Source: a virus (lineage: Duplodnaviria > Heunggongvirae > Uroviricota > Caudoviricetes). Taken from it: a DNA stretch of 25,029 nucleotides. The stretch lies in IMG/VR virus record IMGVR_UViG_2671180435_000002. One strand, given 5' to 3'. Within the stretch, counting starts at the first letter, position 1. Each line of letters begins with the position of its first letter. The position numbers are program-made. Shown piece after piece: positions 21,298-25,029 of this stretch.

Positions 21298-24200
21298 TCA
21301 TCCTCTCCGGATAAGGCACGGGCGTAATCTGCCAGTGTTTTCTTGTTGGTTGCTGCACCATCCTCTTCCTGCAGGCTCGCCAGCAGTGCACTGAGATCCA
21401 GCTGCCAGCGGGAAATACTGATGCGCAGCGCCGCCAGCGCATAAACGAAGCAGTCGAGCGCCTCATTGCGTCGCTTTTTGCTGTCCCACAGTATTTTTTT
21501 CCTGCCATCCACCCATTTTTCGACCTGCTCTTCAGCAGTCAGCTGCTGCGCTTCGGTCAGATCAAAAATATCCGGGTTATTCGGGAAGTGAACGGCACCG
21601 GGAAGCGGTTCATCCCCTTCCGGCGTCAGTGTGAAGCGGTTATAAATCTGCTCTTTCGCGGTATCCGTACCGATTTCGGTAAGGTAAACCCCGTTTTTGT
21701 TTCGCTTACGAGGCATGCTGGCCACCGGCTTACCGTAGACGGATGCCCCTTTAATGGGGATCACCCGGAACAGCCCATGCTTTTTCGAGCGTTCATACAC
21801 AATGGTCGGGTCAATCCCGCCAATATCCCAGCAGATACGGGATATCGACATTTCTGCACCATTCCGGCGGGTATAGGTTTTATTGATGGCCTCATCCACA
21901 CGCAGCAGCGTCTGTTCATCGTCGTGGCGGCCCATAATAATCTGCCGATCAATCAGCCAGCTTTCCTCACCCGGCCCCCATCCCCATACGCGCATTTCGT
22001 AGCGATCCCGCTGGGAGTCGATACCGGCGGTCAGGTAAGCCACACGGTCAGGAACGGGCGCTGAATAATGCTCTTTCCGCTCTGCCATCACTTCAGCATC
22101 CGGACGTTCGCCAATTTTCGCCTCCCACGTCTCACCGAGCGTGGTGTTTACGAAGGTTTTACGTTTTCCCGTATCCCCTTTCGTTTTCATCCAGTCTTTG
22201 ACAATCTGCACCCAGGTGGTGAACGGGCTGTACGCTGTCCAGATGTGAAAGGTCACACTGTCAGGTGGCTCAATCTCTTCACCGGATGACGAAAACCAGA
22301 GAATGCCATCACGGGTCCAGATCCCGGTCTTTTCGCAGATATAACGGGCATCAGTAAAGTCCAGCTCCTGCTGGCGGATGACGCAGGCATTATGCTCGCA
22401 GAGATAAAACACGCTGGAGGGGTCATCCGGCGTCCATTTGAGGCCAAACGGCGTCTCTTTGTCGCCAAATTTAAGATACTGCTCCTCCCCGCAGTGCGGG
22501 CAGGCAACATGAAAACGCATAAAATGCGGGGATTCACTGGCTGCACGCTCAATCTGGCAGGTGCCTCTCACTTTGGGCGTGGAGCCACGGATGGACTTTG
22601 GCCAGACCGAGCCTTCAATACGTTTGTCGCCAAGGAACGTCGGAGAGCCTTCCTGTTCAATATCCTCATCAAAGGCAGCAAGTTCATCATAACCCGCCAC
22701 ATCCACCGACTTTTCACGGTAGTTTTTTGCCGCTTTACCGCCCAGGCACCAGAAGCCACGACCATTGGAAAAACGCTTCATAGTGAGCGTGTTATCCCGG
22801 TGCTTTTTGCCATACCACGGAGCCAGCGCCAGCAGCGACGGAATATCGCGGATGGTCGGCTCAACGTGGGTTTTCATAAAGTTCTCGGCATCACCATCCG
22901 TCGGCAACCAGATAAGTGTGTTGCGCTGCTTATGCTCTATAAAGTAGGCATAAACACCCAGCAGCATTTTGGAATAACCGACACGGGCAGACTTCACCAC
23001 ATTCACCTCACGGATGTAGTCGCTGCCCATCGCATTCATGATGGCCCGCTGAAAGGGCAGTGTTTCCCAGCGCCCTTCCTGGTATGCGGATTCTTTCGGG
23101 AGATAGTAATTAGCATCCGCCCATTCAACGGCGGTCTGTGGCTCCGGCCTGAACAGTGAGCGAAGCCCGGCGCGGACAAAATGCCGCAGCCTGTTAACCT
23201 GACTGTTCGATATATTCACTCAGCAACCCCGGTATCAGTTCATCCAGCGCGGCTGCTTTGTTCATGGCTTTGATGATATCCCGTTTCAGGAAATCAACAT
23301 GTCGGTTTTCCAGTTCCGGAAAACGCCGCTGCACCGACAGGGGGATCCCGTCGAGAATACTGGCAATTTCACCTGCGATCCGCGACAGCACGAAAGTACA
23401 GAATGCGGTTTCCACCACTTCAGCGGAGTCTCTGGCATTTTTCAGCTCCTGTGCGTCGGCCTGCGCACGCGTAAGTCGATGGCGTTCGTACTCAATAGTC
23501 CCTGGCTGGAGATCTGTCTCGCTGGCCTGCCGCAGTTCTTCAACTTCCCGGCGCAGCTTTTCGTTCTCAATTTCAGCATCCCTTTCGGCATACCATCTTA
23601 TAACGGCGGCAGAGTCATAAAGCACCTCATTACCCTTGCCACCGCCTCGCAGAACGGGCATTCCCTGTTCCTGCCAGTTCTGAATGGTACGGATACTCGC
23701 ACCGAAAATGTCAGCCAGCTGCTTTTTGTTGACTTCCATTGTTCATTCCACGGACAAAAACAGAGAAAGGAAACGACAGAGGCCAAAAAGCCCGTTTTCA
23801 GCACCTGTCGTTTCCTTTCTTTTCAGGGGGTGTTTTAAATAAAAACATTAGGTTACGGCGAAGAAGAACGGAAACGCCTTAAACCGGAAAATTGTCATAA
23901 ATAGCGAAAACCCGCGCGCCTTCCGCCCCGTAACCTGTCGGATCGCCGGAAAGGACCCGCAAAATGATAATAATTATCATCTACATGTCACAACGTGCAT
24001 CTACGCCATCAAACCACGTCAAATAATCAATTATGACGCAGGTATCGTATTAATTGATCTGCATCAACTTAACGTAAAAACAACTTCAGACAATACAAAT
24101 CAGCGACACTGAATACAGGGCAACCTCATGTCAACGAAGAACAGAACCCGCAGAACAACAACCCGCAACATCCGCTTTCCTAACCAAATGATTGAACAAA

Positions 24201-25029
24201 TTAACATCGCTCTTGTTCAAAAAGGGTCCGGGAATTTCTCAGCCTGGGTCATTGAAGCCTGCCGCCGGAGACTGTGCTCAGAAAAAAGAGTTTCGCCTGA
24301 AGCAAACAAAGAAAAGAGTGACATTACTGAATTGCTCAGAAAACAGGTTAGACCAGATTGAAGCAATTTAGATAATCGTGCAGACTACGCCCCCTCATAT
24401 CACATGGAAGGTACTACAATGGCTCAGGTTGCCATTTTTAAACAAATATTCGATAAAGTGCGAAATAATTTAAACTATCACTGGTTTTATTCTGAACTAA
24501 AACGTCACAATGTCTCACATTACATTTACTATTTAGCCACAGAGAATATTCATCTTGTTCTTGAAAACGATAATACGGTTTTAATAAAAGGACAGGGTAA
24601 GGTTGTAAATGTAAGATTTTCAAAAAATAAATGCCTTATAGAAGCCACCTTAAAAGGATTCAAATCAGGAGAGTTATCATTTTACGAATACAGGAAAAAT
24701 CTTGCTACAGCAGGGGTTTTCAGATGGATTACAAATATCCACGAAAACAAAAGGTATTACTATACCTTTGATAATTCATTACTCTTTACTGAGAACATAC
24801 AGAACACTACACAAATATTTCCGCACTAAATCATAACGTCCGGTTTCTTCCGTGCCAGAACCGGACTCGCTGGCATGATGAAATATGTGTACCCGGTAAC
24901 CCCGGTGTGCATCGTTTTTGATTATTCCCGCACACTCGCGCAGAAGGAGTTCCCCGTCGGGCTACGGTCTCTGTTAATACGGGAATACGGCGACGATTGG
25001 ATTTGCCCCTATATTTCCAGACATCTGTT

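Follow-up and report, generated by a model that had tools for sequence, protein, structure and literature searches.

We analysed a window of 25,029 nucleotides (nt) from the virus record IMGVR_UViG_2671180435_000002; the window is this whole stretch, and all coordinates refer to it unless stated otherwise. It comprises the morphogenetic half of a lambda-like phage or prophage in reverse orientation. We here focus on two small genes at 24128–24829, which lie beside the cohesive end site cos. According to our preferred reading, to which we give a probability of about 0.6, these genes are the lambda-type orthologues of ynfO/ylcI and ydfO/ybcV in the arrangement of the Qin prophage, and they are two separately mobile accessory genes of the moron type. 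The locus is real but ordinary, as both genes are already known as members of families of no assigned function. An earlier reading of the same DNA without database searches (the sequence-only reading) had described two open reading frames (ORFs) of 77 and 136 amino acids (aa) that are read away from cos on the strand opposite to the structural genes, with a gap of 57 nt between them. We could confirm these coordinates, and the comparisons that we describe here support the proposal that the locus is accessory and non-structural and sits in a mosaic hot spot.

The first gene (gene 1, 24128–24361, plus strand) begins with an ATG after a weak Shine-Dalgarno sequence (AGGG, 24117–24120) and encodes a 77-aa protein, the YnfO-type allele of the DUF3950/YlcI-YnfO family. 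It scores 72.8 bits against Pfam PF13132 (cut-off 25; E 2e-20) and 35.2 bits against NCBIfam NF041551 (cut-off 30), and it matches PHROG 949; PF13132 is also matched by all 15 aligned relatives. By these scores, which exceed the curated cut-offs, gene 1 is classified as a member of this family. The second gene (gene 2, 24419–24829, plus strand) encodes a 136-aa DUF1398 protein (Pfam PF07166, the family of YdfO, YbcV and YcgX; E 3e-43) and is an orthologue of YdfO, YbcV and lambdap78. Its mechanical ORF begins five codons earlier, at 24404; we chose the ATG that sits after the Shine-Dalgarno sequence GGAAGG (24406–24411). The match to the family covers the full length and exceeds the gathering score, and the fold is that of YdfO; gene 2 is a DUF1398 member. 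The two families that the sequence-only reading had guessed are thus the right ones.

Both genes are under purifying selection. The ratio of nonsynonymous to synonymous substitution rates (dN/dS) is 0.14–0.38 for gene 1, where the core compared to phage BP-4795 gives 0.14 at a dS of 0.73, and 0.18–0.29 for gene 2 compared to lambda and Qin. In the other two frames the ratio is 0.8–2.8. Purifying selection thus acts in the annotated frames only, and we conclude that both ORFs are real genes. As the sequence-only reading had noted, they are richer in AT than the structural genes. The GC content is 0.44 in gene 1 (0.48 in the first 52 codons and 0.37 in the tail) and 0.31 in gene 2, compared to 0.53 in Nu1, 0.54 in terminase A and 0.55 in the whole window. 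A low GC content of this kind is typical of acquired accessory genes. The allele of gene 2 is identical to that of PhiR49_1, Kati, Chlobot and ev099.

When comparing the window to phage lambda, we find that lambda carries both genes; the statement in the sequence-only reading that it lacks the second one is therefore wrong. The lambda copy of gene 1 is an ORF of 64 aa (lambda 48109–48303, complement; L001 2889–3083 in our set of compared loci). The copy of gene 2 is lambdap78, which is 76% identical to the window protein over 135 residues and lies downstream of the gene 1 copy at a distance of 660 nt, on the same strand. At the DNA level, window and lambda are 94% identical between cos and codon 55 of gene 1 (24290), where the similarity breaks, so the observation that gene 1 begins like the small lambda ORF and then diverges was correct. 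Similarity resumes 16 nt before the stop codon of gene 1 and continues through gene 2 with 83% identity. In lambda and in the DLP12 prophage (ylcI-ybcW-ybcV), the two genes are separated by an insert of 560 bp with lambdap79 or ybcW on the other strand. The right end of lambda and DLP12 are thus like the window in that both families are encoded between bor and cos, on one strand; the window differs from them by the absence of the insert and by a gene 1 tail that is different and longer. A recent preprint describes that lambdap79 activates the Vulcan defence system, and that escaper lambda phages lose lambdap79 via recombination with Qin, which results in the layout found in the window (bioRxiv 10.64898/2026.09.04.749371).

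The annotation of the lambda genes shows two peculiarities. The 64-aa YlcI-like ORF has been left unannotated in the reference records of lambda and DE3. Furthermore, lambdap78 is annotated with 177 aa from an upstream GTG, whereas the conserved start is the methionine at position 42, which gives a protein of 136 aa; the relatives and the conserved ribosome binding site all support this start.

The Qin prophage of Escherichia coli K-12 contains the same families in the same order (ynfO-ydfO). It shares with the window the 57-nt spacer with a poly-C tract, the 77-aa allele of gene 1 including its tail, and a GGT-N3-ACC box at the same place, and the pair adjoins a Nu1-type gene in both. There are two differences: gene 2 of the window is only ~76% identical to YdfO, and the window module is part of a complete lambda-like morphogenetic region, whereas Qin is a decayed prophage.

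The spacer between the genes varies among close relatives. Its poly-C tract (24390–24394, as seen in the alignment of relatives) has between 4 and 7 C in sequences that are 97–100% identical (the window, L002, L008–L013 and L081–L160), and the distance from start to start is 290, 291, 292 or 293 nt in 20, 51, 7 and 1 of 79 IMG/VR loci, respectively. Both real slippage and homopolymer sequencing errors could produce this variation. In the window, the two genes share one frame and are parted by a single TGA, and a fused ORF with TGG instead of TGA is present in databases (P0014, 233 aa, 761 member sequences). We considered that the two genes might be fused or joined by programmed read-through and dropped this idea, as near-identical relatives show each of the three frame relations. 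Since the poly-C tract varies, read-through is not a conserved feature.

The boundaries of the cassette become visible when gene 1 is compared between phages. The protein alignment is near-invariant to approximately residue 52 and unrelated beyond. The conserved core (codons 1–52, 24128–24283) consists of a basic N-terminal arm, the motif IRFP and two helices, and it forms the left flank of the mosaic junction. The variable C-terminal tail (24284–24361), recognized by the alignment and the DNA comparison, is part of the swappable cargo; it is unlike between lambda and the window although DUF1398 is present in both. In the Shiga toxin (Stx) phage BP-4795, the DUF3950 gene (ORF52) occurs alone between Rz and the HNH/TerS/TerL packaging module. 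This gene is similar to gene 1 in its core (86% DNA identity over 141 nt), its orientation opposite to the late genes, its position directly before packaging genes and the presence of the same element on the right flank. It differs from the window locus by having no DUF1398 gene, another tail, a different packaging module and its own strong terminator hairpin (z −3.3) after the gene. In phage ev207, DUF3950 is followed by bor. These two phages share with the window only a left block, which starts at 24128 and ends at 24268 in BP-4795 and at 24290 in ev207 as in lambda, and a right block from 24887 or 24898 to 24997. The gene 1 tail and gene 2 are thus replaceable cargo. The right block is a conserved flank of the junction (24887–24997; blastn, 89% identity to L004 3961–4072 and 93% to L005 495–594), which in lambda is located between p78 and bor and where the lambda match extends to L001 4317.

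From these comparisons we propose how the locus may be organized. The two genes sit at a junction prone to recombination, with the lysis/bor region on one side and cos on the other. Gene 1 is probably the constant anchor of this junction, with its conserved core of 52 residues and an exchangeable tail, and gene 2 is an optional cargo that brings its own conserved and presumably host-responsive 5' region, including a PdhR-type GGT-N3-ACC box. Two hallmarks of morons are observed, namely an atypical composition (GC 0.31–0.44 vs 0.53–0.55) and a presence/absence polymorphism, as the cassette is replaced in ev207 and BP-4795. The lambda morons bor and lom are similar in being accessory genes of the late region with atypical composition that are dispensable for growth, and in lambda bor shares the strand of the cassette and comes right after it. 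In contrast, Bor and Lom are exported outer-membrane proteins with known phenotypes and mapped promoters, whereas the window proteins are cytoplasmic, and no phenotype is known or promoter mapped for them.

To survey E. coli, we used a query of 1,290 nt over cos and both genes against 5,426 complete genomes. It matched 4,779 of these, and 2,636 of the 5,426 genomes matched with at least 80% query coverage. In these 2,636 genomes the two neighbouring genes bear the annotations 'YlcI/YnfO family protein' and 'DUF1398 domain-containing protein'. The two genes thus make up an accessory region that lambda and most lambdoid prophages of E. coli have next to cos. Among phages, tblastn detected DUF1398 in 43 records, all of them lambda-like, and DUF3950 in 155; in about 110 phage records, Stx phages and ev207 among them, DUF3950 is present without DUF1398. 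The reverse case was found in a neighbourhood survey of DUF1398 with one genome per species, where DUF3950 was sought within 6 kb. All homologues with at most 53% identity, which come from at least nine genera, have no DUF3950 within this distance. Among them are genes of the YcgX type from Escherichia, Shigella and Citrobacter, as well as genes from Klebsiella, Kluyvera, Raoultella, Pseudocitrobacter, Salmonella diarizonae and Epilithonimonas. These divergent solitary genes are chromosomal, in non-phage contexts, and we found no conserved neighbours for them beyond genus-level synteny. Thus, the pair is not obligate. The sequence-only reading had suggested a coupled module of the toxin-antitoxin (TA) or defence type and had named homologues in which the two genes occur independently as the finding that would argue against it. 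Such homologues are what we observe (155 vs 43 phage records, and solitary DUF1398 genes), and neither PADLOC nor toxin families gave a match in support of such a module.

In a type II TA pair, gene 1 would be a ribbon-helix-helix (RHH) antitoxin or autorepressor and gene 2 the toxin. The order of a small binder and then a protein of ~130 aa, and the sizes of both, do resemble RHH-antitoxin/toxin operons. Moreover, a low-confidence single-sequence AlphaFold2 model of gene 1 (predicted local distance difference test score 55) has a C-terminal helix at residues 57–74, and the fused form P0014 exists. However, the genes occur independently in both directions, many species have kept solitary DUF1398 genes, and the copies in lambda and DLP12 are 660 nt apart with a gene on the opposite strand between them. 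An antitoxin would be expected to hold its toxin by the tail, but that of gene 1 is not conserved among the phages that bear DUF1398, and with a 57-nt spacer whose poly-C tract varies in length there is no translational coupling. When looking for similarities of gene 2 to a toxin family or to a nuclease, kinase or acetyltransferase fold, we found none. In addition, YdfO was produced for its nuclear magnetic resonance (NMR) structure (PDB 2HH8), which suggests that the protein is tolerated at a high level. The independent distribution essentially refutes the TA reading, and we regard it as very improbable.

The 77-aa allele of gene 1 is directly followed by DUF1398 in 79 of 80 IMG/VR contigs. 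As these 79 copies are 97–100% identical, they represent one young module and not independent evidence. The sole exception is contig 2565956707_000003 (L120, from position 404), which contains gene 1 and no DUF1398; its homology to the window ends at 24387, just before the poly-C tract.

What gene 1 does can be approached from its layout. The order of a basic arm, NIRFP, a helix at residues 19–31, a Gly-rich turn and a helix at 37–50 resembles the pattern of the Arc repressor; both helices are present in the low-confidence AlphaFold2 model. The likeness to RHH repressors of the Arc/Mnt type concerns the succession of basic arm, short strand (NIRFP in gene 1, NLRWP in Arc), first helix, Gly turn and second helix without a shift in register, as well as the size, which fits a small dimeric regulator; unlike these repressors, gene 1 has no statistically significant sequence or fold match. 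Profile and fold comparisons thus did not confirm the RHH-like character proposed by the sequence-only reading. The most likely role of gene 1 is that of a small dimeric regulator that would bind DNA.

A DNA-binding protein next to cos might also be involved in packaging. Gene 1 starts 200 nt from cosN (23917–23928, located by alignment to lambda cos; the corresponding site is annotated as cos in the DE3 record), and both genes are read away from it, on the strand opposite to Nu1 (23194–23739, minus strand) and terminase A (21294–23219, minus strand). Gene 1 could thus be imagined as a cos-proximal DNA binder that modulates the terminase or the transcription through cos, with gene 2 as an unrelated cargo. 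This would agree with the position of DUF3950 directly before two unrelated packaging modules (lambda Nu1/A with cos, and HNH/TerS/TerL in BP-4795), with the short distance to cosN and with the palindromes in between. However, as the gene runs against the late operon, its place is a poor one for expression at the time of packaging, and its position may simply mark a recombination junction. Furthermore, the cosQ-cosN-cosB region of lambda (~200 bp) suffices for packaging. Satellites provide evidence on both sides, as DUF3950 has been reported in capsid-forming phage-inducible chromosomal islands (PMC13612085), whereas the homologue in the satellite vB_KppS-Ant is found among replication genes and not at packaging genes. 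Altogether, we consider a function in packaging or genome-end biology very unlikely.

The protein of gene 2 has a fold of two alpha-alpha-beta-beta-beta repeats, and YdfO is a soluble globular protein according to its NMR structure. We detected no signal peptide and no membrane segment in the gene 2 sequence. It is probably a cytoplasmic, non-enzymatic protein with a binding or adaptor function. A different function is implied by PHROG 413, which gene 2 matches with an E-value of 2.7e-87 and which is labelled 'head protein', and by older GenBank labels; the name 'head protein' or 'putative envelope protein' has been carried over into RefSeq phage records. For a virion protein, it would be unexpected that gene 2 lies outside the head operon and runs opposite to every morphogenetic gene, that many lambda-like phages with the same heads lack it, and that solitary homologues occur in chromosomes. 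The soluble structure without signal peptide or membrane segment also argues against it, and the gene is not essential in lambda (PMC10695390). A virion role therefore has next to no chance in our view. Both genes may instead act in the physiology of the host.

As the two genes are read against the late operon, their expression would have to come from their own signals, under lysogen or host control, and not from lytic late transcription. Expression in the lysogen would thus be expected. A candidate for host control is the palindrome AACAGGTTAGACCAGAT (24342–24358), a GGT-N3-ACC box that overlaps the end of gene 1 and is conserved upstream of DUF1398 in both layouts. It is the counterpart of the box AAcaGGTcagACCAgaT between ynfO and ydfO in K-12, where a site for PdhR has been detected by genomic systematic evolution of ligands by exponential enrichment (gSELEX; PMC7660256). 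In the same study, ybcV mRNA was 10-fold lower in a pdhR deletion, and PdhR thus appears to activate ybcV. By analogy, PdhR may bind to the window copy AACAGGTTAGACCAGAT and may control gene 2 via GGTTAGACC. The box is part of a 75-nt 5' region of gene 2 that is conserved between the Qin/window and the lambda/DLP12 layouts. A consensus scan also revealed a candidate promoter just upstream of gene 2 (TAGACC-16-GATAAT, 9/12, 24349–24376, plus strand). Promoter-like sites in the region are not enriched over shuffled sequences, so that this site is a candidate only; GATAAT is also found in lambda and DLP12, with different spacing. An independent transcription of gene 2 is plausible from these sequence features. 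Upstream of gene 1, a repeat search found an inverted repeat, ATCAATTATGACG-N7-CGTATTAATTGAT (24026–24058), with arms of 13 nt that are 85% complementary. It is located 70–100 nt before the gene and is identical in lambda, and it may serve as an operator or another regulatory site.

Several results weigh against our preferred reading of two separately mobile moron-type genes or against parts of it. Concerning DNA binding, aligning gene 1 to Arc with hhalign gave the expected register with a probability of only 4%, a profile search of the PDB sequences with gene 1 gave 0 matches, and in the Pfam search with gene 1 and its relatives no RHH family appeared even at E 10. Because these tests gave no significant support, we only infer DNA binding by gene 1. 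Concerning the moron character, neither the scan nor inspection by eye revealed a convincing sigma-70 promoter before gene 1, and we found no intrinsic terminator after gene 2, where the hairpin has a z of −0.9 and no U tract. A promoter and terminator of their own, as expected of morons, are thus unproven for these genes. Concerning the independence of the genes, DUF1398 homologues with at least 70% identity always have DUF3950 upstream on the same strand in the per-species survey. This constant partner makes a functional link possible within lambdoid phages; the copies represent one recent module.

Such a link would be expected if the genes formed an anti-phage (superinfection exclusion) or counter-defence module, with gene 1 as the regulator and the DUF1398 protein as an effector that binds a protein of a phage or of the host defence. 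The location in a moron hot spot beside bor, on a strand compatible with lysogeny, would suit this function, as would the small, non-enzymatic gene 2 protein with its binding-type fold. DUF1398 always comes after DUF3950 within lambdoid phages, and the neighbouring insert gene lambdap79 activates Vulcan (bioRxiv 10.64898/2026.09.04.749371). However, PADLOC-DB v2 gives no match for gene 1 and only a chance-level match to Csx23 for gene 2 (E 0.023, 12.7 bits), and solitary chromosomal DUF1398 genes are found in non-defence contexts. The literature that we searched contains no phage phenotype, and a knock-down of lambdap78 leaves the plating of lambda unchanged (PMC10695390). We thus regard a defence module as unlikely. 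A more specific version, in which DUF3950 and DUF1398 form a module that is expressed in the lysogen, senses the state of the host (e.g. through PdhR and pyruvate) and blocks or evades another phage or a host defence, appears quite unlikely. If it were true, one of the last parts of lambda without an assigned function, the unannotated ylcI-like ORF and p78, would receive one.

For both families and for lambdap78 and lambdap79, we found only observations on expression and binding in the literature, and no phage phenotype of the ynfO and ydfO families. The transcription of ydfO responds to stress, being induced by an ionic liquid (PMC4077768). A screen by sequencing of transposon insertion sites (TraDIS) lists ydfO among the genes that were rated as essential by TraDIS alone, with no comment given, and in a CRISPR interference screen lambdap78 was non-essential and its knock-down had no effect on lambda plating (PMC10695390). 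An overexpression of YdfO has been said to raise the resistance to oxidative stress (PMC4077768, with reference to Wang et al. 2010); ydfO is nowhere mentioned in the main text of the latter paper (PMC3105296). Another article (PMC9181523) writes ydfO where its own text shows that yfdO of the CPS-53 prophage is meant. The oxidative-stress claim for YdfO is probably a mix-up with yfdO of CPS-53.

As a discovery, the locus has little weight, since thousands of genomes have these genes annotated and one structure has been solved. It is nevertheless one of the few parts of lambda-like phages without an assigned function, and the analysis is of corrective use: lambda carries both genes, one of them still unannotated in its reference record; the labels 'head protein' and 'envelope protein' that are being propagated are unsupported; the pair is very probably not a TA module; and the published statement on YdfO and oxidative stress cites a paper without ydfO in its main text.

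Lastly, we describe observations on the surroundings of the two genes. Phages such as PhiR42_1, PhiR26_1, Kati and mEp332 align with ~93–96% of the window at ~96–97% identity. The 12-nt cohesive end at cosN differs from lambda at five positions (plus strand CGCCTTCCGCCC in the window vs AGGTCGCCGCCC in lambda), whereas the surrounding cosQ and cosB DNA is nearly identical to lambda; E. coli strain 582 has a prophage with this same variant. Among the promoter-like sites of the region, the best one (GTGACA-16-TATCAT, 10/12, 23964–23991) is on the minus strand and directed to cos and Nu1. A perfect palindrome, ATGATAAT-A-ATTATCAT (23964–23980), overlaps this site. At the other end, the window is closed by the terminal 32 nt of an IS2 insertion element (24998–25029). 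IS2 is inserted exactly where the homology of related phages ends (24997), inside the conserved flank that precedes bor in lambda, and the corresponding sites in E. coli genomes are annotated as 'IS3-like element IS2 family transposase'.

The right end of lambda was also found at ~100% identity in unrelated 'genomes' (L016–L037, L039 and L048–L052), for instance in Pseudomonas, Brevibacillus, Flavobacterium, Kitasatospora, Verrucomicrobium and several metagenome-assembled genomes, often on contigs of ~3.5 kb or 48 kb. This looks like contamination with control or spike-in DNA; presumably, the size of ~3.6 kb of such contigs corresponds to a sequencing control amplicon. Many error-laden protein clusters from ENA contigs of ~3.5 kb look contaminated in the same way. 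Finally, the end of the ev207 record NC_049949.1 (L005 1–35) reads TATCGTCGGCAGCGTCAGATGTGTATAAGAGACAG, which we take to be the Nextera/Tn5 read-1 adaptor with its mosaic end, left in a RefSeq phage genome.

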